The position numbers and the translations under genes are program-made. Below are positions 1 through 57,144 of a DNA stretch of 64,000 nt, in pieces (position 1 is the first letter of the stretch; the number at the start of each line of letters is the position of its first letter). Origin of the DNA: Candidatus Woesebacteria bacterium RIFCSPHIGHO2_02_FULL_42_20 (GTDB taxonomy: Bacteria > Patescibacteriota > Microgenomatia > UBA8517); NCBI GenBank assembly GCA_001792535.1, contig MGGS01000016.1, positions 160 to 64,159 on the forward strand, given 5' to 3'. Below the pieces are notes generated by a model. That model saw nothing but the letters and a program-made list of their open reading frames with translations, was not told the origin of the DNA and ran no database searches.

Positions 1-48
1 GAGTTCTGTAAAGAATATTGAATCGCTTTACCACTAGTTATATTTCTT

Positions 49-678
49 TTAAATTCCAAACTTCTCAGACAAAAATTTAATTACTTTCTCGCCCAAAATT
101 TTGTGACCTTCAGAGTTTGGGTGCGCCGCATCAACAAGTAAGTCCTTGAATCCTAGTGCCAGCAAATTATCAAACAACTCCAACTTCTCTACTTTGGATT
201 TTTTGCATATTTCGCTTATAAATCCATCATACTTTCTAACTTCATCGTTGCTAAGAAGTAAACCTTTGGATTTTTGAGGGTTAACAGGAGTCAGGCCAAT
301 GAAAACTACTTCACAGTTAAAATCTGTCGATAATTTTATCAATCGTTCAAGCGCTTTTTTAAAATCCCTTTCAGGAGTCTGTTTGCCTTTTCTCCAATTG
401 TTAGGGCAGCTGTCGTTAATCCCTGTCGCAAAAATAACCAACACTTCATCCTCGGAGTCAACCAGACGAATCGCCAATTCACTTTTGACTCTCTCCGGTA
501 GCTCAATAGCAAGCTCGCCCGGAACCCCCAGATTATAAACCTGGAAATTATTTTCGCTGGCTAAGTTATATTTCTCGTCGATATAACGGCGAACACGCGC
601 AACCCAGCCACCTTCCCTATCCCACTTGCCGTAAGCAATGCTGTCGCCGAAAACAAAAATTTTATCTAACATTGTCAA
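49..678 (-). CDS. SGNH/GDSL-family hydrolase
   Basis: N-terminal GDSIAYG (GDS block), central GINDS, C-terminal DAAHPNSEGH (DxxH catalytic block); 209 aa. Confidence 0.75.
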   Translation of the reverse strand: MTMLDKIFVFGDSIAYGKWDREGGWVARVRRYIDEKYNLASENNFQVYNLGVPGELAIELPERVKSELAIRLVDSEDEVLVIFATGINDSCPNNWRKGKQTPERDFKKALERLIKLSTDFNCEVVFIGLTPVNPQKSKGLLLSNDEVRKYDGFISEICKKSKVEKLELFDNLLALGFKDLLVDAAHPNSEGHKILGEKVIKFLSEKFGI

Positions 679-698
679 ATTATATCAAAAACTATGGA

Positions 699-717
699 GC
701 TAATTTGAAGACAAATT
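699..717. repeat. Array repeat copy 1 (GCTAATTTGAAGACAAATT; AATTTG-AAGA-CAAATT imperfect palindrome)
   Basis: Read directly; lies between stop of ORF 700..936 and start of ORF 49..678. Confidence 0.9.
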
Positions 718-936
718 CATTTTTAATCTCTTGTACTCATCAAGAATTTTTTCTGCCCAATAAGTATAATTATCCGTAATCTCGTTTATATTCAAGGTCA
801 TTTTATCCCCCAACTTTTTCTTAGCTTTAAGAAGGAAAGATATACCAACATCTTTCGATTGTTTTGCAAAACAAAATGACGCTCGATAAAGATCGGCAAT
901 TGCATCAGAAGTTTTATCAAATTTATTTAGTGCCAT
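700..936 (-). CDS. hypothetical small protein (78 aa)
   Basis: ORF overlapping upstream 112-aa ORF by 10 nt (operon-like pair); no recognisable motif. Confidence 0.35.
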   Translation of the reverse strand: MALNKFDKTSDAIADLYRASFCFAKQSKDVGISFLLKAKKKLGDKMTLNINEITDNYTYWAEKILDEYKRLKMNLSSN

Positions 937-1265
937 AATTTTCCAAAGTACCTTTTTATAATATCATGAAATTCTTTTCGAATCTTTGAATTCAATATTT
1001 CCAAGTTATCGTTATTTAATCGAGGCCGAATGTTCAGGACTGCTGTCGTATCGATTTGCTTGTCAAAAAAATTAATTCCTCCACCCCAAATATCGTTTTG
1101 TCTGCTTCCCTTTTCAAGTAAAACCTTTTCGCCGTCAGCATGGAGATCGCCTCCGGCGACAATCCATTCGTTCTCGACATCTACAGTAAGCTTTATATAG
1201 TTACCGTATTTTTTGCGAAAACTTAAAATTTCGGTCTTAGTTAGTTCCTTATCGACAAACTTCAT
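927..1265 (-). CDS. hypothetical protein (112 aa)
   Basis: ORF with protein-like composition; no motif I can name. Confidence 0.4.
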   Translation of the reverse strand: MKFVDKELTKTEILSFRKKYGNYIKLTVDVENEWIVAGGDLHADGEKVLLEKGSRQNDIWGGGINFFDKQIDTTAVLNIRPRLNNDNLEILNSKIRKEFHDIIKRYFGKLWH

Positions 1266-1271
1266 TGTGTT

Positions 1272-1544
1272 TTATTCAAGCTGACTCTGACTCGCGATGA
1301 TATTATCTAGTAACCCCAGACTTTCGGCTTTGCATGTACCACGCGTAATCACACCAACTCTGCGGTTCGAAGTTACACCAACGCATTCAGCGCTACAACC
1401 GGGTGCGGTACACCTCTGGGGCTCAAGATAAGCTTCTCCGCCACCCCCAGCCACAAAATTCCCGGAAATTGCAACAATAACCTTTTGGCAACTTGTTAAC
1501 AACGCTATTCTGTCTCTCAGACTCATTGATCCAGCTTCTACCAT
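1272..1544 (-). CDS. Cys-rich hypothetical protein (90 aa)
   Basis: CTAPGCSAEC...TRGTC cysteine cluster, Gly-rich GGGGEAY; possible metal/redox small protein. Confidence 0.4.
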   Translation of the reverse strand: MVEAGSMSLRDRIALLTSCQKVIVAISGNFVAGGGGEAYLEPQRCTAPGCSAECVGVTSNRRVGVITRGTCKAESLGLLDNIIASQSQLE

Positions 1545-1589
1545 TTTGAGATTATATCCCCATTTTAGCAGTATTTTACTCCGGAGCTT

Positions 1590-1605
1590 GCTTTGAAGAC
1601 AAATT
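1590..1605. repeat. Array repeat copy 2 (GCTTTGAAGACAAATT, 2-nt shorter variant); second partial copy TATTTGAAGTTTAT overlaps TTG start at 1622
   Basis: Read directly. Confidence 0.85.
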
Positions 1606-1621
1606 CTATATTATAAACTAT

Positions 1622-2263
1622 TTGAAGTTTATAATATCTAAAACTGTGTTAAAAATTTATTTAGCAAGACATGGACAAGACGAAGATAACGTCAAGGGCA
1701 TTTTGAATGGAAGAAGGGATAAGCCTTTAACCCCCAAAGGAACCGAGCAGGTAAAAGAAGTTGCAGAAAAAATTAAAGATTCCGGTCTCAACTTTGATAA
1801 AATTTATTCTTCACCTTTGAAAAGGACATATAAAACAGCTAAAATAATTTCCGAGGCACTTGGTATGGGTAAACCCTCGGTGTTGCAAGATCTTATCGAA
1901 CGCGATTTTGGAATAATGACAGGTAAACACATTAGTCAAATCGAAGAAATGTGTAAACCATATATCCTCAAAACCGAAACAATAACTTACTTTCTCAAAC
2001 CTAAAGGTGCAGAAACATTTCCCCAACTTGTTGAAAGAGGAAAAAAATTATTATCAAAAATTAGGAAGTTACACCCAAAAGGAAATATCTTATTAGTAAC
2101 TCATGGAGATATTGGAAAAACGATATATGCAGCCTACTATAATCTAAAGTGGAAAGATGTACTAACTATGTTTCACTTTGGCAACTCCGATTTACTTTTA
2201 CTTTCCAAGAATTCTCCGGCCGAGGAAGCATATGTGTTTAAAAGTGATCAATACAATTTATAG
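1622..2263 (+). CDS. histidine phosphatase (phosphoglycerate mutase-like) family protein
   Basis: IYLARHGQ (RHG catalytic motif) near N-terminus, LVTHGD later; TTG start called by ORF track (alternative GTG at 1646). Confidence 0.75.
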   Translation: MKFIISKTVLKIYLARHGQDEDNVKGILNGRRDKPLTPKGTEQVKEVAEKIKDSGLNFDKIYSSPLKRTYKTAKIISEALGMGKPSVLQDLIERDFGIMTGKHISQIEEMCKPYILKTETITYFLKPKGAETFPQLVERGKKLLSKIRKLHPKGNILLVTHGDIGKTIYAAYYNLKWKDVLTMFHFGNSDLLLLSKNSPAEEAYVFKSDQYNL

Positions 2264-2303
2264 TTTTAGACTCACATTCGTATAATATAACAAAAGTAAC
2301 AAA

Positions 2304-2690
2304 ATGAATTGGTATAAAGGAAATATTGAAGAGGAAACTTTGAAAAATAATTACTTTAGAAAAGTACTCTTTACAGGAAAGCATGCGCAGCTTGTCGTAA
2401 TGTGCTTGAAACCCGGAGAAGAAATTGGCTTGGAAGCGCATGAGAATGTAGATCAGTTTTTCAGGTTTGAAAAAGGCTCGGGAAAAGTTATAGTTAACGG
2501 TGAAGGAAAAACTGTAAACGATGGAGACGCCGTGATAGTCCCAGCCAGCAGCGAACACAATATCGTCAATGCTTCAGTTAGTCAAGATCTGAAACTTTAC
2601 ACAATCTATTCTCCACCCAACCATCCGGACGGGACTGTACACAAAACAAAGGCTGAAGCGGACAAAGCCGAAGAACACGAGAGTCACTAA
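2304..2690 (+). CDS. cupin domain protein
   Basis: G-x-E-x-H-x-N ... VPASSEHNIVN two-His cupin motifs, 128 aa. Confidence 0.7.
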   Translation: MNWYKGNIEEETLKNNYFRKVLFTGKHAQLVVMCLKPGEEIGLEAHENVDQFFRFEKGSGKVIVNGEGKTVNDGDAVIVPASSEHNIVNASVSQDLKLYTIYSPPNHPDGTVHKTKAEADKAEEHESH

Positions 2691-2797
2691 GTCAATTCCT
2701 CCGCGGGCCTAGAGTCCACGGTTTCTTTGAAACTGATATGACAAATTAATTTTCAATCTTTTATGTTCATTGGAAATTTTTTTAATTCTCACAAGTA

Positions 2798-3520
2798 TCA
2801 ACTATAAACTTTTTGGGTATCAAATATTAGCTGCTCCAGATGATCAAACATATCTTCATTAATCCCGTATTTTACCTTTTCATCTTCACTTATTGTCATG
2901 TTGAACCCAACCCTCAGAGATCTTAAATTATCAATAATATCTCGATGTAATAGTCTATTTAACAGGACGCCAATTCTATCTTTATCCACACTTTGCATTC
3001 TGCCTTTTCTAAAAGAATCGAGTATGTGGGTTAATTCATTGATATTTAGTTCAACTTCCGCCCAGGATGCCAGCGTCTGCAGTAAGTATGTCTCGCCCTC
3101 AGTTAATTTTATGGGCTTTGTGTCTTTGATACAAAAAACGCCTACTTTCTTGCCATCAATAGAATGTATAGGCACTCCTGCATAAAAGCGGATATACGGG
3201 GGACCCGCTACCATTGGATTGTCGGCAAAACGATTATCTTTTTTAGTATCGTCAATGACAAGAATGTCATTGGTTAATATTGCATGGCCGCAAAACGATA
3301 TCATTCTATCCCTCTCTCTTTCTGATACTCCATGGCAGGACTTATACCACTCGCGATTTGAATCAACTAAGGTAATTGTTGAAATCGATACCTTGAACAT
3401 TCGTAGCGCTGTCAAAGTAATGCGATCAAAGCGGGCTTCCAGTGGGGTATCCAGAATTTTCAATCCTTGTAAAGAGGCTAATCGCTGTATCTCGTCGTCA
3501 GCTATAGCAGACGACTGCAT
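2798..3520 (-). CDS. GAF domain-containing protein
   Basis: N-terminal GAF-like region (LQTLASWAEVEL, FCIKDTKP, YAGVPI), 240 aa. Confidence 0.6.
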   Translation of the reverse strand: MQSSAIADDEIQRLASLQGLKILDTPLEARFDRITLTALRMFKVSISTITLVDSNREWYKSCHGVSERERDRMISFCGHAILTNDILVIDDTKKDNRFADNPMVAGPPYIRFYAGVPIHSIDGKKVGVFCIKDTKPIKLTEGETYLLQTLASWAEVELNINELTHILDSFRKGRMQSVDKDRIGVLLNRLLHRDIIDNLRSLRVGFNMTISEDEKVKYGINEDMFDHLEQLIFDTQKVYS

Positions 3521-3680
3521 ATAGTGTAGTTCTTAATAGTATCATTTAGAATTCACTCGCACAATAACCGGATCAATCACTCAAGTTGATTAAACTTGTG
3601 CAGCGCCAGTTAATTTCAGTAGTATTGCATTCAGTAGACGTACAAATTCCTAAGAAAGCAACCAGGTATAGACCGGGTGA

Positions 3681-3700
3681 TATTAATTTGAAGACAAATT
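3681..3700. repeat. Array repeat copy 3 (TATTAATTTGAAGACAAATT)
   Basis: Read directly; ends 2 nt before stop codon of BrnA-like ORF. Confidence 0.9.
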
Positions 3701-3702
3701 GT

Positions 3703-4014
3703 TTAGATAGTTATCGAAGTTTTACCCTCGGCATACTTGTGAATTAGTACATTTAAAAGCCTTTGGTAAGGGATATTAACTCTTTTTGCCTTTGCTTTAA
3801 CTTTAATAATATCCTCATTTTTCACTCTCAATGTTATTCTTTTCGTCTTTTGTAATTCCAAAAAGTTTTTCGCAGATTCTTCAAGCTCTTTTTTCCTTTT
3901 TTCAAAGTTTTTAATAGATACAAATTCACCCTTTTCTAGGAATTCCTCTAGCTCCATTTCGTAATCATCTAGGGGAAATTCATCAAAATAATCTTTCTTC
4001 TGTTTTTTATTCAT
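3703..4014 (-). CDS. brnA: BrnA-like antitoxin (CopG/RHH type)
   Basis: C-terminal ITLRVKNEDIIKVKAKAKRVNIPYQRLLNVLIHKYAEG typical of BrnA; overlaps upstream toxin ORF by 4 nt (ATGA). Confidence 0.65.
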   Translation of the reverse strand: MNKKQKKDYFDEFPLDDYEMELEEFLEKGEFVSIKNFEKRKKELEESAKNFLELQKTKRITLRVKNEDIIKVKAKAKRVNIPYQRLLNVLIHKYAEGKTSITI

Positions 4015-4292
4015 ATTTTTAAATACTTCTTCTTCAAATTTCTATTCGGATAAATCGTTTTTAAAAATCTAACTTTTCTTACTTTATCAATTACATATGG
4101 CACAGCATATACTTTATTTTTTATACTTACTATCAAGATCCTCTGATTGGGATATCTCCTCTTGTTAAAGTGATCAATATCATCCAGAACTTTCCCGCTT
4201 TCAATCGCTTCAATAATTTCTTCAAAACCGACTCCCCTTGTTGCTTTTATTATTAAGTTTTTCTCTTCAGGGTAATCAAATTTATACTTCAT
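4011..4292 (-). CDS. brnT: BrnT-like ribonuclease toxin (DUF497)
   Basis: KFDYPEEKNLIIKATRGVGFEEIIEA resembles BrnT N-terminus (FEWDxxKNxxNxxKHGxSFEEA); toxin-first order as in BrnTA. Confidence 0.65.
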   Translation of the reverse strand: MKYKFDYPEEKNLIIKATRGVGFEEIIEAIESGKVLDDIDHFNKRRYPNQRILIVSIKNKVYAVPYVIDKVRKVRFLKTIYPNRNLKKKYLKI

Positions 4293-4384
4293 ATACTAAT
4301 AGTTCGTACATCCGTTGTCAAGACATTATTAATTGTAATTGCTCTTCAAATACCCGCTTAACAATTCTATCACTTTCTATCGAA

Positions 4385-4403
4385 GCTAACTTGAAGACAA
4401 ATC
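4385..4403. repeat. Array repeat copy 4 (GCTAACTTGAAGACAAATC)
   Basis: Read directly. Confidence 0.9.
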
Positions 4404-4449
4404 TACCCTTGTAACTCATTTACACTTCCGGCTGCCGGTAATAGAGGTA

Positions 4450-4898
4450 TTACATCCTTTCTGCAAATTCCCGTCCCTTGAGCAAACCATTCTTTGCCAA
4501 TATTGCTCGCACATCTTTCTTTAACATCTCTTTCTTTTCATCTTTAGATAGTCTTGTTAAACCAACAGGAATTTCTACTCCGTTTGTTTCCACATTCTTA
4601 AATTCACTAGATATCCGTAACATCTCTGGTCTTCTTTTCAGTCCTTTTCTTTCCAGTCTTCTTGCCTTGAGTAAAAACATTCTAAACTGCATCCTGTTTC
4701 AGCAATTCTAAATCTGAAAACATCAGGGTCCCAAGGTAAAGATAAAGCAGATAAACCGGCTCTACTTTCTCTAATGTCAAATCTATCCCACCTTATTTCC
4801 TCAACGGATAATCCCAATCTTTGAGAAATGAACTGTTTAGCATCATCCAGAGACGGCGCATCTTTATTAGCTTCACTTTCTAAAACACCTTCTGTCAT
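4450..4898 (-). pseudogene. small hypothetical gene apparently frameshifted (two overlapping ORFs, 86 aa + 80 aa, different frames)
   Basis: ORFs 4638..4898 and 4450..4692 overlap by 55 nt in different frames; no recognisable family. Confidence 0.3.
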
Positions 4899-4931
4899 AT
4901 TTATATTACTGTTAATTCATTCTATTTCTAA

Positions 4932-4950
4932 GCTAATTTCGAGACAAATT
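4932..4950. repeat. Array repeat copy 5 (GCTAATTTCGAGACAAATT)
   Basis: Read directly; overlaps stop codon of VapC ORF. Confidence 0.9.
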
Positions 4951-5319
4951 ATTAAGCAGTTTCTTGTCAAATGATGCTATCTTGCCTTTGTTTACTTCGG
5001 CCCACGAAAGTAGATAACTGTCAACAAAATGTAAGTTTCTTCTGTAAAAATCCCACAAAGAAAGCAGGACTTCTCTTTCTTCGACTCTTAACCACTTCTG
5101 AGAAAGAAAGGTTTCCATCGACTCCGCTATATCTTCCCTATTATTTTTATAAAATGATTCGAGGACAAAGACAACTTCACTTATGACGAGCGCTTTTATT
5201 ATCAGTTTTGACTTTCCTTTTTGCACGTTTTCAAATAACTTTCTGGCATTTTGGTATTGAGATTCAATGTCTCCTACCAAATATCTTAGGATTACATTGG
5301 TGTCAACTATTTGCTCCAT
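4933..5319 (-). CDS. vapC: PIN-domain toxin VapC
   Basis: IVDTNVILRYL N-terminal PIN acidic motif, 128 aa, overlaps upstream antitoxin ORF. Confidence 0.75.
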   Translation of the reverse strand: MEQIVDTNVILRYLVGDIESQYQNARKLFENVQKGKSKLIIKALVISEVVFVLESFYKNNREDIAESMETFLSQKWLRVEEREVLLSLWDFYRRNLHFVDSYLLSWAEVNKGKIASFDKKLLNNLSRN

Positions 5320-5564
5320 TGTTTCACTAAGCTTTTACCAAATTCTTTCCTTGCTTTTCTTAAATCCGAATCGGAAAGTTTTATCCCTGTATTTAAAGAT
5401 CCTCCAAGTGACCAAAAATCCTTTTTTAACTCCACCTCTAATTTATCAGCCTTCTTTCTAATAACAGCCTTGACCGGCCCGTTTACCCCTAGTGAGCGAA
5501 GCATTATTTGCGGGACAGTCAATTGGCCTTGACTGGTAATCGAAACTACTTTTTGCATTTCCAT
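5307..5564 (-). CDS. vapB: AbrB/SpoVT-family antitoxin (VapB-like)
   Basis: VVSITSQGQLTVPQIMLRSLG swapped-hairpin beta-barrel motif; start placed at internal Met (MEMQK...), ORF track extends to 5594. Confidence 0.6.
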   Translation of the reverse strand: MEMQKVVSITSQGQLTVPQIMLRSLGVNGPVKAVIRKKADKLEVELKKDFWSLGGSLNTGIKLSDSDLRKARKEFGKSLVKQWSK

Positions 5565-5770
5565 TATCATACTGAGATAATAATGTAATGTCAATTGTTA
5601 TTGTTTCATTACTACAACCAAATCTTACAATAAATAGCCTACCGAAAATGCGGTCAAAAATGTTAAATATCATTCTCCAGTTATCCAGATGCAATATTTG
5701 AATATCAACTTTTGATTAACAGCTTGTTTACAAAACCCACATTCAGATTCTACCACGATTTCTAAGCAAG

Positions 5771-5788
5771 GCTAATTTGAAGACATTT
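5771..5788. repeat. Array repeat copy 6 (GCTAATTTGAAGACATTT, right arm degenerate)
   Basis: Read directly; copy nearest the recombinase gene. Confidence 0.85.
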
Positions 5789-5861
5789 TTCTAGTTTCGT
5801 TTTTGCAGATTTTTGGAAATTTACAGTAGATAAACAGTCCAACTTTGAGTAACATTTAGTC

Positions 5862-7431
5862 ATGGAACCGGAGGACACCGACAAATCGGTTTTACAGGAA
5901 CAATCGCGGACAATATTTTACGATCTTAGACAGAACTTAATAAAACTGCGTTCGCAAGACCAATCAGGTGAAAATACAGAAAGTCTAGCTGCAAAAGTTG
6001 CAGAGTTAATGACAAGGTTATACGACTACCACCTATCTTTGTATCAACTTTCCGGAAAATCATTTAATTCTGCAGGTCCATTTTGGAATGGCTAATCAAT
6101 ACTCACGAAATTTGAGTAAAAATGTAAAGCGTGGGAATCAATACAGATTCCATAACAAATAGCAGTGGCTTGGACCCGCAAAGATTGGGTGGCTTAACGT
6201 TACTAACCCCGATACACAGGAGAAGGGAATAGTTGTTGACCCAGATAGATTTCCTCTGATTGTTAAGGGGATTCGGCTCATTATCACCGGCGCACACACT
6301 CCAATGCAGGTTTTGCACAAGCTTAATAACGAATGGGGCTTCAGGACCAGGATAACAAGGCGTCAGGGAGGTAAGCCACTAAGTAAGAGTGCTTGGTATA
6401 AACTATTAGCAGATCCCTATCTTTACGGACTAATGATCCGCAGCGAAGGGGAGGAAATAGGAAACCATAAACCTGTGCTTAGTAAGGACGATTTTGATAA
6501 ACTACAAATTATGTTAGGGCGTAAGGGGAAACCGCGGGTAGCAAAACACGAATTTGCCTATAAAAAAGAGGTGCTTAAATGTGGGGAATGCGGCGGGTCG
6601 GTGACAGCCGAAGAACACTGGCAGATTATTTGCCCGGAGTGTAGAACAAAGTTCAATAAGGCCAAGACAGCCGATAGGTGCAAGGGGTGCGAGCTTCTGA
6701 TTGAGGAGATGAAAAATCCAAAGATTCTCCACTATGTTCACTATCATTGCACAAAACGTATCAACCCAAAATGTGCACAACGCAGTATTCCGCTACATAA
6801 ACTTGAAAAACAGATTGACGAGGAACTTTCAAAGTTTGAAATAAAAGAGGAATTTAAGGACTGGGCAATCCAGTATTTGAACGAGTTAAACGATAATGAG
6901 GTTAAAGAACACTATGTAAGCCGAAATAATACCGGAGAAGCCCTCAAGGATACTATAAAGAGGCTGGATAGCCTTACCAAACTCTTTATATCGCCACAAA
7001 ACTCCGAAAGAGAGCTGATGACGGAGGAAGAATACTCCTCACAGCGCAAACCCCCTCTTGAAGAAAAGGAGAGCTTGGCATGATTAGCAAAGGAAATAGA
7101 CCAACAACAGGATAACTGGCATGATCTAATAGTAAATACCTTCAACTTTGCGTGTTATGCGCGTTACTGGTTTGCTAAGGGTGATTTAAAGGAGAAAACC
7201 GAGATACTCGGCGCACTTGGTTCGAACCTTACAATAACAGACAAAAAACTGTGTGTTGACGGTCTAAATCCATTTTTGATCATCGCGGACGAAAGGAGTA
7301 AAGTAGAAGAATTGTCCAAAATGTTCGAACCTGCAATAAAGCCTGATTTGTCGCACCGAAGTGCCCCTCTCAAAGAGCTTTGTCAATCTTGGCTGGCCGT
7401 TTACAAAAAATGTCGAACTTCATTTGATTAG
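5862..7431 (+). pseudogene. large serine recombinase, decayed (frameshift near 6013-6095, in-frame TAG at 6160-6162 and TGA at 7081-7083)
   Basis: Frame-1 translation 6163..7431 gives recombinase-domain-like GWLNV..., zinc beta-ribbon CGECGGSV...CPEC and coiled-coil tail; upstream fragment ...ANQYSRNLSKNVKRG resembles end of resolvase catalytic domain; 115 stop-free codons continue past the TGA. Confidence 0.65.
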
Positions 7432-7552
7432 CTCGCCTCGCCCCGCTCGGCTCGCAATGTGAGCGCGGCGTACATGTAACTTCGTTACAGTATAAACCCC
7501 TTTACCCTGAAAAACTCCTCAGAGTTTTTTACGGGCACCCGCCGTGCCTCCG
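7388..7552. repeat. Left arm of perfect 165-bp inverted repeat
   Basis: 7388..7552 is the exact reverse complement of 8776..8940 (checked base by base); contains hairpin AAAAACTCCTCAGAGTTTTTT at 7510..7530. Confidence 0.95.
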
Positions 7553-7575: not shown

Positions 7576-7608
7576 CTCGCCCTTCGGGCGAGGAGAGTTT
7601 TGTTATTT
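7576..7608 (+). terminator. Rho-independent terminator-like hairpin (CTCGCCC-TTC-GGGCGAG followed by T-rich run)
   Basis: 7-bp GC-rich stem, 3-nt loop, then GAGTTTTGTTATTTT; just inside left IR at 3' end of ORF 7608..8417. Confidence 0.4.
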
Positions 7609-8417
7609 TAATCCTGGATTAATTGGAAGTCACTACAGTGCTTTTTAGAATCAGATGACAGGGTACTGAGATTTTGTGGTAGGGAGGTAATATATTTTTT
7701 TATGGCTTCTGGTAAATTTTTAGTGGAAGAAACTATTTCGTTGAAACGTTCTTGAGACCAACCGTAATAGAAACACGACTCTAGATTCCAAGTGTTAGCG
7801 CCACTAGCCAAACTCAATAATTTACCAATACCCTCACCACTACCGGCACCGTAAGTATCTACCACCATAACGTATAACTTTCCGTTTTGATAATCCATTA
7901 GGTAAGGATTATTACTCGATCCAGAAAGATCTTTGATGTGTGTAAATATTTTCCAAATACTGTCGTTTTTATTTGCATACAAAATACCGGAAATATCTCC
8001 TGATCGGACTATGTTCATATTCCCTTTTTGAAAGATTGCATATTCAACACCATTAAAAGTATATGTTTTATCAACTTGATCAGGCATTATTGAGGTGGGA
8101 ACATTCCTATTTAAAACCAGAGGTCTGACGTTAGTTACCACAAAATGTCCTATCTTGTCCCCTTTGCTATATCCTGATTTATTTACATAGCCTGCAATAA
8201 TTGTCTCTTTACCTATTTGGCTTTCCAACTCAGGCCATACATTGTTTTTGCTAGGTTTAATAATCAGTTTAAAATTTTGAGGCGTATCTTCAAAACTAAG
8301 CGTGCTCAAAGTAGACTTCGTTAATTTAAATTCGTAGTCATCGTCGATAAATGGATTTGTCCTTTTGTTTACCTGAAGAGGGCTTAGTTTGTAAAGTTCG
8401 TATATACCAGGCTTCAC
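7608..8417 (-). CDS. hypothetical protein (269 aa), sole ORF inside the IR-bounded module
   Basis: GTG start preceded by in-frame TAA; no recognisable catalytic motif (not an obvious DDE/serine/tyrosine recombinase). Confidence 0.5.
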   Translation of the reverse strand: MKPGIYELYKLSPLQVNKRTNPFIDDDYEFKLTKSTLSTLSFEDTPQNFKLIIKPSKNNVWPELESQIGKETIIAGYVNKSGYSKGDKIGHFVVTNVRPLVLNRNVPTSIMPDQVDKTYTFNGVEYAIFQKGNMNIVRSGDISGILYANKNDSIWKIFTHIKDLSGSSNNPYLMDYQNGKLYVMVVDTYGAGSGEGIGKLLSLASGANTWNLESCFYYGWSQERFNEIVSSTKNLPEAIKKYITSLPQNLSTLSSDSKKHCSDFQLIQD

Positions 8418-8775: not shown

Positions 8776-8940
8776 CGGAGGCACGGCGGGTGCCCGTAAA
8801 AAACTCTGAGGAGTTTTTCAGGGTAAAGGGGTTTATACTGTAACGAAGTTACATGTACGCCGCGCTCACATTGCGAGCCGAGCGGGGCGAGGCGAGCTAA
8901 TCAAATGAAGTTCGACATTTTTTGTAAACGGCCAGCCAAG
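8776..8940. repeat. Right arm of perfect 165-bp inverted repeat
   Basis: Exact reverse complement of 7388..7552; includes last 13 codons of ORF 8901..9212. Confidence 0.95.
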
Positions 8941-23963: not shown

Positions 23964-24602
23964 TCAATATACAATTTTAATCTTTGCGCTTTCAATATAA
24001 ACTTTTGAGCTGTCGAAAGATCGGAATTGCACGCGGTATAAATTTTTTCCCGACCACAAATTAGCTACCCCCGAGGAAACTAAAGTCGTAGTCAATTTAT
24101 CTGTTTCTATATCACTCCCTGTAACCCCAATCCCATGAGTTACGTCGTAAAGCCTCACTTGCGCTTTACCACTATCTGCATGGAGCGACGCTTCAAAATA
24201 AACCTTTGCACCGTCGCCATAATCATTTTTAAGATCTACCCAGACTTCGCTTGAAGTAATATTTTGCCAATCCGGTGAGTTGGTAGATGCCTGGGCAATC
24301 AAAGTGATATAGTCAGTGTTTTTCTTGACAATTGTACTGGGTGTGGGAACTGCGATCGGACTACTCGCGGTTGTGGGTGTAGCTATCGGCGTTGTGGTAA
24401 AAAGCTGATCTTCCTCTGGAAGCGGCGTAGAAATACTAGGCATACTCTCAACAATTTTGACCATCGAATTGTTTGCAGAAAGTCTTTTTTCAAAAGAATC
24501 AATTCTGGTATATAGATAAAAACTAAAAGGAACAAGCAAGATAACTGCAACAAAAAGTAATAGCGTAATAAGAAAATGTATTTTTGGAGCAGCTATTTTC
24601 AT
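23964..24602 (-). CDS. hypothetical membrane-anchored secreted protein (212 aa)
   Basis: N-terminal TM, Pro/Thr-rich linker, beta-rich C-terminal domain. Confidence 0.45.
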   Translation of the reverse strand: MKIAAPKIHFLITLLLFVAVILLVPFSFYLYTRIDSFEKRLSANNSMVKIVESMPSISTPLPEEDQLFTTTPIATPTTASSPIAVPTPSTIVKKNTDYITLIAQASTNSPDWQNITSSEVWVDLKNDYGDGAKVYFEASLHADSGKAQVRLYDVTHGIGVTGSDIETDKLTTTLVSSGVANLWSGKNLYRVQFRSFDSSKVYIESAKIKIVY

Positions 24603-56981: not shown

Positions 56982-57069
56982 TGGTGCTGGGACCAGGATT
57001 CGAACCTAGGTAGGCCTTTCGGCCGCGAGATTTACAGTCTCGTGCGATTGTCCACTCCGCCATCCCAGC
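56982..57069 (-). tRNA. tRNA-Tyr (GTA), long variable arm, CCA encoded
   Basis: Hand-folded cloverleaf: acceptor GCTGGGA/TCCCAGC, anticodon stem CGAGA/TCTCG loop CTGTAAA, variable-arm hairpin GGCC-GAAA-GGCC, T-loop TTCGAAT. Confidence 0.85.
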
Positions 57070-57070
57070 C

Positions 57071-57144
57071 TGGAGCCTTCCCAGAGAATCGAACTCTGAT
57101 CGACGGTTTACAAAACCGCTGCTCTGCCACTGAGCTAGGAAGGC
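57071..57144 (-). tRNA. tRNA-Thr (TGT), CCA encoded
   Basis: Acceptor GCCTTCC/GGAAGGC, anticodon stem GCGGT/ACCGT loop TTTGTAA, T-loop TTCGATT. Confidence 0.85.

Follow-up and report, generated by a model that had tools for sequence, protein, structure and literature searches.

We describe a repeated junction element that probably separates exchangeable gene cassettes on the chromosome of Candidatus Woesebacteria, a lineage of the Candidate Phyla Radiation (CPR). The element lies in a 64,000-nucleotide stretch of contig MGGS01000016.1 of Candidatus Woesebacteria bacterium RIFCSPHIGHO2_02_FULL_42_20 (the window, which denotes the whole of that stretch), and is organized around a 20-bp core, AATTTGTCTTCAAATTAGCT, contained in a junction of ~35 bp. 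On balance we favor a reading in which cassettes are exchanged by recombination between cores, core and cassette together make up a split promoter, and the decayed serine recombinase gene beside the array is a bystander. Comparative evidence now bears out in its essentials the interpretation of this region as an array of cassettes, put forward in an original prediction made from the letters of the window, and the system is an undescribed form of modular gene shuffling mediated by repeats.

The window contains six copies of the motif between positions 699 and 5789, all in one orientation and one at each boundary between gene blocks. The working strand is the minus strand; because the genes lie mainly on that strand, the motif is read here as AATTTGTCTTCAAATTAGC, the reverse complement of the 19-mer GCTAATTTGAAGACAAATT. 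In this orientation it falls directly 3′ of the stop codon of the upstream gene, and two copies overlap the stop codon of a minus-strand gene (the open reading frame, or ORF, at 700-936 and the VapC gene at 4933-5319), the products of which end in NLSSN*/NLSRN*. The 19-mer occurs once exactly (699-717, plus strand) and four more times with two mismatches (3682, 4385, 4932 and 5771, all on the plus strand); five copies compare with 0.06 expected by chance, and none of 100 shuffles gave five. At the sixth site (1590) only the 16-mer core matches, with two mismatches, its final 14 nt (TTTGAAGACAAATT) being exact and its 5′ part diverged. Scored with a weight matrix derived from all copies, the six sites reach 20.6-28.4 bits, and the other 58 kb of the window holds nothing above 17.1 bits. 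The claim of six co-oriented copies, confined to this part of the window and each placed at a gene-block boundary, thus stands for all six sites; that they are copies of a single 19-mer holds exactly for one of them. The junctions of the window are the following.

5770..5789, minus strand: junction core, the first of the array and the nearest to the recombinase remnant (20.6 bits); left arm degenerate, AAAATGTCTTCAAATTAGCC in array orientation, with an extended -10 box, TGGTAGAAT, ~25 nt beyond the -35 position
4931..4950, minus strand: junction core, with a complete sigma-70-like promoter, TTGTCT-17 nt-TAGAAT, at 4947..4919
4384..4403, minus strand: junction core, GATTTGTCTTCAAGTTAGCT (25.7 bits)
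3681..3700, minus strand: junction core, AATTTGTCTTCAAATTAATA (23.4 bits), right after the stop codon of the BrnA-like gene
2729..2754, minus strand: possible degenerate junction, 3′ of the stop codon of the GAF gene and matching only the left half, AATTTGTC (weak match, 9.7 bits, E 8.8)
1586..1605, minus strand: junction core, AATTTGTCTTCAAAGCAAGC, with a diverged 3′ part (21.2 bits) and a TTGTCT-18 nt-TAAAAT promoter at 1602..1573
698..717, minus strand: junction core with the exact consensus AATTTGTCTTCAAATTAGCT (28.4 bits), and TATAAT 8 nt ahead of the ATG of the SGNH hydrolase gene

The core is shared widely within the lineage. A scan of one genome per species with a degenerate 20-mer returned 103 stretches, and the multi-copy arrays among these genome matches all belong to Candidatus Woesebacteria metagenome-assembled genomes (MAGs), bar one labelled Gammaproteobacteria; similar arrays with the core are present in at least eight named Woesebacteria genomes. 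The MAG labelled as an uncultured Gammaproteobacteria carries typical Woesebacteria arrays on two contigs (L042 and L106; CAZVJU010000006.1 and CAZVJU010000013.1), has cassettes with up to 85% protein identity to those of Woesebacteria MAGs, and is probably mis-binned or mislabelled. The corresponding scan of metagenomes yielded 98 loci with 237 copies, and core orientation was mixed in none of the 98. The consensus junction unit is TAATTTGTCTTCAAATTAGCTCCGGAGTAGAATT, in which positions 2-21 are nearly invariant, information falls sharply on the left and about one copy in two has the right half; the exact 20-mer core is found at 93 of 213 unique junctions. This conservation spans genomes with KsgA proteins 50-65% identical and peptide deformylases 65% identical, and it extends to the asymmetric spacer and the 3′ AGCT of the core, which are conserved as strongly as the arms. 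The neighborhood of the arrays is chromosomal and syntenic (KsgA, peptide deformylase, short-chain dehydrogenase, NUDIX and peptidase S51 genes), with tRNA genes also nearby. A viral origin was rejected, the 19-mer having no match in viral contigs, where a 15-mer gave only single matches per contig that we take as chance.

Taken together, the arrays carry 194 distinct cargo proteins in 118 families, including toxin-antitoxin pairs, NUDIX, GNAT, SGNH and EamA proteins and methyltransferases. Two loci also hold non-coding modules of 107-136 nt between two cores (L136 at ~91-300 and L200 at ~2600-2800, in oriented coordinates), with a palindrome on TATGATATATCATA that reads ACTATGATATATCATAGT in L136 and AGTATGATATATCATACT in L200. 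A literature search on the motif string and on gene cassettes in Woesebacteria returned nothing.

The evidence that these modules change places comes from comparing loci. Every locus was split at its cores and the pieces were clustered at ≥85% nucleotide identity, whereupon modules 88-100% identical were found beside differing neighbors:

Module m6: followed by m39 in one contig, by m29 in three contigs
Module m83: followed by m84 or by m90
Module m7: in the order m72 - m7 - m73 or m86 - m7 - m87
Module m34: after m33 or after an unrelated module
Module m3, the BrnTA-like module of the window: with the neighbors it has in the window, or between m29 and m33

Module m3 recurs at ≥85% nucleotide identity in L125 and L177 with different neighbors, modules m31-32, m39 and m85 likewise occur in different contexts, a HigBA cassette present in L191 is missing from the same place in L210, and the pair formed by the DUF5674 gene and the 78-aa ORF of the window is also bounded by cores, among other neighbors, in CAZVJU6. 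Homology ends at the motif: 26 of the 70 internal ends of high-identity alignments fall within -15 to +45 nt of a core in both partners, far more than predicted by the roughly 7% of the sequence that cores occupy. Non-redundant breakpoint pairs comprised 14 with a common upstream module and 14 with a common downstream module. When the upstream module is shared, identity continues through the core and bulk divergence begins at positions 20-25 in 13 of 14 pairs, most of these pairs also lacking earlier isolated differences; when the downstream module is shared, bulk divergence ends by position 4 in 13 of 14 (16 nt upstream in the remaining pair), with isolated differences further in for several pairs. 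Because homology breaks exactly at the core, we regard the modules as exchangeable cassettes, and the breakpoint positions therefore place a cassette between about position 22 of one junction and position 21 of the next, with the exchange inside the core. Chimeric assembly is an unlikely cause of these module orders, since a repeat of 20-35 bp is shorter than the final k-mers of the assemblies (implied by contig names such as k141) and several arrangements recur in independent samples. Near-identical modules beside different neighbors, with homology ending at the motif, are the gene-content variation in relatives that the original prediction had proposed to look for, and together with the uniform core orientation they agree with its description of a cassette-like array bearing one co-oriented site per module.

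The position of the core relative to genes suggests a function on either side of it. Of 205 non-redundant junctions, 149 are followed by a forward gene and 42 by a reversed one. TTGTCT has a TAnnnT box at a distance of 16-18 nt in 67 of the 149 forward junctions (45%) vs 7 of the 42 reversed ones (17%, about the chance level by a rough estimate from base composition), and in 25 of the 67 forward junctions with a box the start codon follows 6-9 nt past the -10 box, implying that transcripts at such junctions would be leaderless. On the other side, the core offers TAA and TAG stops in two frames, and 51 of 150 upstream forward genes end on a stop of the core itself (the TAA of positions 1-3 for 28 genes, the TAG of positions 17-19 for 23). 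On these counts, which are read from sequence, the core would trap upstream genes at its stop codons and contribute the -35 half of a split promoter: we infer that it supplies the -35 box (TTGTCT) and that forward cassettes bring their own -10 box (TAnAAT) 17 bp on. A perfect core also stands ahead of reversed cassettes, where it has no -10 box, and a reversed core was never seen; the core therefore belongs to the backbone of the array and not to single genes. A general housekeeping promoter was also considered and rejected: the tRNA promoters of the window (TTGnnn-17-TATAAT) have no core, and neither they nor the other 58 kb provide the housekeeping copies that had been named as grounds for abandoning the cassette interpretation.

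From these observations we propose the following mechanism. Within a hypervariable, AT-rich island of Woesebacteria, the 20-bp core in its ~35-bp junction would part exchangeable cassettes, which would be gained, lost and replaced by recombination between cores. The exchange itself might proceed by short-homology recombination, as proposed here by analogy with the promoter-early stem-loop (PeSL) cassettes of phages, or through a sequence-specific enzyme encoded elsewhere. With the core as the -35 half and the cassette as the -10 half, a promoter would be rebuilt at each insertion, so that a cassette arriving behind any core would be transcribed at once.

The palindrome within the core appears to matter as duplex sequence. 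As single-stranded DNA, the short core forms a weak A/T hairpin (-3.7 kcal/mol), and compensatory changes account for only 3 of the 135 departures from the arm consensus; the palindrome is therefore conserved as duplex sequence and not as a fold, and for the short form we reject a folded attC-like site or an RNA hairpin on these two results. The comparison with attC sites drawn in the original prediction does not hold on this point, as the arms show no compensatory variation. In the first 10 kb of the window and in six further array loci, Rfam gave no match at E ≤ 1. In other loci, about 19 unique junctions (~10%) have a 38-nt long form, AATTTGTC[C YWGGRACGT YYG ACGTYC]TTCAAATTAGC, in which a 19-nt insertion places a GC hairpin with a stem of 6-7 bp exactly at the dyad center. 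The inner stem covaries, one pair being A-U in eight copies and G-C in seven, a covariation biased by the selection of copies, which required pairing. Long-form copies (two in L082, also LBWB14, at 3364 and 4908; four in L195; others in L133, L188, L214 and further loci) are interspersed among short ones in the same orientation, and a covariance model of the long form finds only short copies in the window. A motif-like sequence, AAATTTTTTCCCGACCACAAATTAGCTAC, at 24038-24068 and within an ORF, was also scored by the long-form model (20.1 bits, E 0.047) and is probably chance or a relic.

Next to the array lies the recombinase gene to which the original prediction had attributed it.

6058..7431, plus strand: remnant of a large serine recombinase gene, delimited by homology to full-length relatives and judged to lie outside the system

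The prediction had placed a decayed gene at 5862..7431. Its decay is confirmed; homology is limited to about 6058-7431, with the remnant 270 bp from the first core and divergent to the cassettes, and the window lacks the first ~119 codons altogether, the part that would specify the catalytic domain. Full-length homologs have ~450 aa and a Resolvase domain, and of the best of them, P0002, only residues 120-428 have a counterpart in the window; in-frame stops at ~6160 and ~7081 (TAG and TGA) are fixed in the population. P0002 itself marks one end of a small integrative element, which also carries an HTH_17 gene, and has no motif nearby. Two other homologs, P0003 and P0006 (L217 324-1664), are intact ORFs of ~450 aa in which the Resolvase domain is missing from the N-terminus, and P0003 aligns to the window from a MANQYSR... 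stretch onward; they may be domesticated, catalytically dead derivatives, and P0006 sits among ordinary genes with no motif near. A tblastn search of 12 other arrays with the remnant gave no matches. Across 580 kb of array loci, a search with P0002 found another serine recombinase only in L211 (3461-4444; 32% identical to P0002, N-terminus intact, 2.9 kb downstream of the last core), and a XerD search of limited sensitivity found no XerD-like match. Among 147 non-redundant flanking proteins of ≥170 aa searched against Pfam, no family of recombinases is represented more than once; Pfam also identified no recombinase in the tested ORFs of the window, and none lies in the 24 kb that surround the MGGJ array. 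Because the gene is truncated and carries two stops, its homologs occur without the motif, 12 arrays have no homolog and no recombinase recurs, we judge it to be a bystander, the remnant of an unrelated integrated element. Serine-recombinase sites of the res, hix or att type go with a catalytically competent enzyme, and apart from the one in L211 the arrays have no such partner in the loci searched.

The 3′ end of the remnant is part of another structure. A perfect 165-nt inverted repeat (7388-7552 and 8776-8940) flanks an ORF at 7608-8417 (minus strand), and its left arm holds the final 44 nt of the remnant, which hints at a different former role for the recombinase. The segment has the same orientation in five other assemblies and may be an old invertible segment of that recombinase; in L003, 402 extra nt near 8364 extend the ORF to 430 aa, and L005 also differs there.

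Several other explanations of the element were weighed. That the array is integron-like and driven by the adjacent large serine recombinase, with a 6-4-6 crossover site and an attI-like first copy, would fit the location of the remnant, 270 bp from an atypical first copy and divergent to the cassettes, as well as the intact serine recombinase of L211, 2.9 kb from the last core. We nevertheless hold it to be very improbable. The catalytic domain is missing and the two stops are fixed, the intact homolog P0002 belongs to an unrelated integrative element without the motif, and the 3′ end of the remnant falls within an inverted repeat around another gene; the arrays of eight other named genomes and of ~100 metagenome contigs have no homolog except in L211, the geometry of which differs (downstream, not upstream). 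The attI-like status of the nearest copy fares no better, since the first copies of the other genome-derived arrays that we inspected show no consistent difference and include canonical cores (MGGJ and LBWB2). A dedicated recombinase encoded elsewhere is a more serious candidate, if still a doubtful one. Such an enzyme would read the 20-bp core as duplex DNA and insert or excise circular cassettes, in an integron-like form of gene capture equipped with a split leaderless promoter and a stop-codon cap. It would be in keeping with the preservation of 20 core positions between genomes with KsgA 50% identical, with strict co-orientation (0 of 98 loci mixed), with an intact core before reversed cassettes that need no promoter, with the tight packing of cassettes against both sides of the core, and with a 6-4-6 dyad that has an asymmetric center and takes the 19-nt hairpin of the long form exactly there. 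It is opposed by the lack of a recurring family in the 147 flanking proteins, by the presence of only two serine recombinases and no XerD-like match in 580 kb, by the absence of candidates around the MGGJ array (24 kb) and among the window ORFs tested, by junctions of m34 and m83 that put the exchange at different core points, and by the species of the window, in which half of the array now consists of a drifted, non-palindromic variant with the promoter boxes alone preserved.

Two further readings were weighed. The element might be the shared promoter and operator of a regulon, a repressor dimer binding the AATTTG-N4-CAAATT dyad over the -35 box, with no role in shuffling. The dyad center lies ~30 nt upstream of the inferred transcription start, as with many repressors, the arms are conserved as sequence rather than pairing, and the -10 box is enriched at the right spacing; an operator is nonetheless unlikely, because the core is fully conserved ahead of ~42 reversed cassettes that it cannot drive and is never itself reversed ahead of them, the asymmetric spacer and 3′ AGCT are as conserved as the arms, breakpoints at the core far exceed its share of the sequence, and the cargo is functionally heterogeneous and variable. 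Least credible of all is a selfish palindrome of the REP/REPIN or MITE kind, spread by a transposase such as RAYT and without host function. Its appeal lies in an extragenic, palindromic repeat directly 3′ of stop codons, with a long form that has a covarying GC hairpin. Such a repeat is difficult to reconcile with confinement to arrays (none in 58 kb of housekeeping DNA), strict co-orientation, the precise phase with downstream -10 boxes and start codons, and a short form without selection for pairing, and no Y1 or other transposase recurs near the arrays.

Exchange of cassettes between cores with a split promoter remains the reading we favor, and several observations weigh against parts of it. 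The promoter is a prediction from sequence. A -10 box at the correct spacing is present in only ~45% of forward junctions, and a consensus promoter scan of the window finds complete promoters at two of the six junctions (4947..4919 and 1602..1573), the remaining four having -10-like boxes 21-25 nt away. The insertion of the long form destroys the -35 box, leaving a non-consensus hexamer, and the model does not account for this form. A length of 20-35 bp is at the lower limit for RecA-type recombination, and the two informative junctions place the crossover at different points in the core: at m34 a variant core moves with the upstream module, and at m83 the core differs at positions 3, 16 and 20. 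A fixed crossover position cannot be mapped, because the core is too invariant and these two cases disagree. The dozens of metagenome contigs from the window's own species show no cassette variation, their sole difference being an IS3 insertion. Finally, a -35 box and stop codons are too little to explain 20 identical positions across deep divergence, which hints at a sequence-specific protein; conservation at all positions might tentatively be ascribed to such a protein, or else to homogenization by frequent cassette exchange between genomes.

The array of the window has a GC content of 35.5-37% (38% for a segment that extends into the recombinase remnant), against 39-47% elsewhere, and its cassettes are as follows.

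Cassette 1, 4951..5767, minus strand: VapB-like gene (5307-5594) and PIN/VapC gene (4933-5319), the stop codon of the latter being the TAG within core 4931..4950
Cassette 2, 4405..4928, minus strand: small, apparently frameshifted gene in two overlapping ORFs (4450-4692 and 4638-4898)
Cassette 3, 3702..4381, minus strand: putative toxin-antitoxin pair, DUF4258-like (4011-4292) and CopG/BrnA-like (3703-4014)
Cassette 4, possibly two cassettes, 1607..3678, minus strand: GAF protein gene on the minus strand (2798-3520) and a pair of reversed, plus-strand genes for a cupin (2304-2690) and a histidine phosphatase (1622-2263), with degenerate junction-like sequence (a weak match) between the GAF gene and the pair
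Cassette 5, 719..1583, minus strand: 90-aa Cys-rich ORF (1272-1544), DUF5674 gene (927-1265) and 78-aa ORF (700-936), which stops at the TAG of core 698..717
Cassette 6, 1..695, minus strand: SGNH/GDSL hydrolase gene (49-672); the array goes on past the window start in L001

Cassette 3 had been named BrnTA. Support for that name comes from Pfam matches below threshold (CopG_antitoxin scores 27.1 bits against a cut-off of 28, and DUF4258 22.4 bits against 25). Elsewhere in the window, ARAGORN reported a tRNA-Val at 56982-57144 (plus strand) that overlaps tRNA-Tyr and tRNA-Thr on the minus strand and is probably a mirror-image false positive.

Contigs of the source population were obtained by an exact-protein look-up of the SGNH hydrolase; they include GCA_001792415.1, and some extend 10 kb beyond the window start. 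As had been suspected from the window, the array continues there, running 4 kb past the window start with 5-6 further junctions of a diverged form, for a total of 11 junctions of ≥16.8 bits across 9.5 kb on a single strand; a weaker, degenerate copy lies at L001 11370 (15.5 bits). The diverged junction in L001, TAATTTGCCTCAACTTYAGCTTGGGAGTAGAATTT, has its left half in common with the window motif and keeps a TTGCCT-17 nt-TAGAAT promoter, having lost the palindrome and any fold. Small genes occupy this part (L001 9028-12611: creatininase, a histidine phosphatase fragment, HIT, HigBA and nitrilase fragments), the gene fragments of L001 being those of the histidine phosphatase and nitrilase and a short unannotated ORF tail between the SGNH and creatininase genes. 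Two exact-protein look-ups of 24 contigs each revealed no presence or absence of cassettes within the species of the window, only one fixed gene order. Since several cassettes are decayed, half of the junctions have drifted to a non-palindromic form and the population is not polymorphic for cassettes, the window array looks old and sedentary. Some population contigs carry an IS3-family element (rve and HTH_Tnp_1) between the SGNH hydrolase and creatininase genes (L110 7383-8457, L116 1673-2747), and many contigs, the window included, stop at its insertion point.

CPR bacteria have tiny genomes, and little is known of how they acquire and express accessory genes. The arrays described here constitute a lineage-wide cassette system with boundaries legible from DNA alone, for which the 20-mer provides a simple marker of the Woesebacteria flexible gene pool in any metagenome. 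They also offer a testable promoter model, split and often leaderless, for organisms without genetics, and a concrete case in which to ask whether a short regulatory repeat, as in PeSLs, is enough for modular shuffling or whether a dedicated recombinase is required, as in integrons. If a dedicated enzyme exists, its compact 20-bp site would make it a new recombination system and a tool of interest.

In its array logic the element resembles integrons, from which it departs on the points that define them; it is neither an integron nor a known repeat family. Integrons and CALINs are co-oriented arrays of small, packed cassettes with one site each, rich in toxin-antitoxin and acetyltransferase cargo and in genes of unassigned function, with occasional reversed ORFs, ORFs ending in the site and a cassette order that differs between relatives. 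Their attC sites are imperfect palindromes of 57-141 bp (R''-L''...L'-R'), conserved in structure rather than sequence, and their cassettes are mostly promoterless and expressed from a common Pc. The Woesebacteria arrays share the co-oriented sites, one per cassette, and a content and order that vary between relatives and are bounded at the sites, as well as the small, packed cassettes, the kinds of cargo, the occasional reversed ORFs and the ORFs ending in the site. Unlike integrons, they yielded no IntI or other tyrosine recombinase (window ORFs, flanking proteins and 580 kb of array loci), their 20-bp core is conserved in sequence without compensatory variation, the long form is shorter than any attC and absent from the window, and cassettes appear to carry their own -10 box (45% of forward junctions). 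Xer-dependent modules, such as those at the pdif sites of Acinetobacter plasmids or IMEX at dif, are likewise small modules that include toxin-antitoxin pairs, bounded by short sites and moved by a recombinase encoded elsewhere. Sites of the dif type are 28 bp long (11-6-11), and pdif sites alternate in orientation, whereas the Woesebacteria core has no similarity to known dif sites and a uniform orientation. A location at the origin or terminus (dif) was rejected, there being no GC-skew switch anywhere in the window.

Repeats of the REP/BIME/REPIN type (PMC8049555) are also short, extragenic imperfect palindromes after stop codons, and the hairpin variant adds to the likeness. They are defined by extragenic copies dispersed over the genome and by a RAYT transposase that the repeats flank; the Woesebacteria element differs from them in being clustered in one island, co-oriented and promoter-phased, with no RAYT found nearby. 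Putative mobile promoters are highly similar promoters upstream of non-homologous genes (Matus-Garcia et al. 2012, PMC3488235). The element shares with them a similar promoter sequence ahead of non-homologous genes, but only its -35 half is conserved, it stays in the array backbone, and it is present where it can drive no gene.

Its nearest analogue, on present comparison, would be the PeSL, a mobile regulatory cassette of T4-type phages (Arbiol et al. 2010, PMC2839356; Comeau et al. 2014, PMC4122927). PeSLs are repeated intergenic motifs that extend from the upstream stop codon and contain a sigma-70-like -35/-10 promoter, with or without a stem-loop (PMC2839356), and they sit in hyperplastic regions of small genes of unassigned function, where they bound the insertions, deletions and replacements that distinguish close relatives (PMC2839356; PMC4122927). 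Formation of mini-circles is a further mark of PeSLs. The differences are that the Woesebacteria element resides on a cellular (CPR) chromosome, its 19-mer having no match in viral contigs; that it is a single 20-bp core near-identical across genera, where PeSLs share only promoter boxes and a variable stem; that its stem-loop is weak or missing in most copies, the short form of the window having a weak A/T hairpin and ~10% of junctions elsewhere a GC stem with covariation; and that its promoter appears to be split between core and cassette and often leaderless, where a PeSL is followed by a Shine-Dalgarno sequence. The likeness lies in a junction that starts at the upstream stop codon and contains a predicted sigma-70-like promoter, in its concentration in hyperplastic regions of small genes, in insertions, deletions and replacements between relatives that end within it, and in a long form whose stem-loop overlaps with the -35 box, as in one subclass of PeSL.

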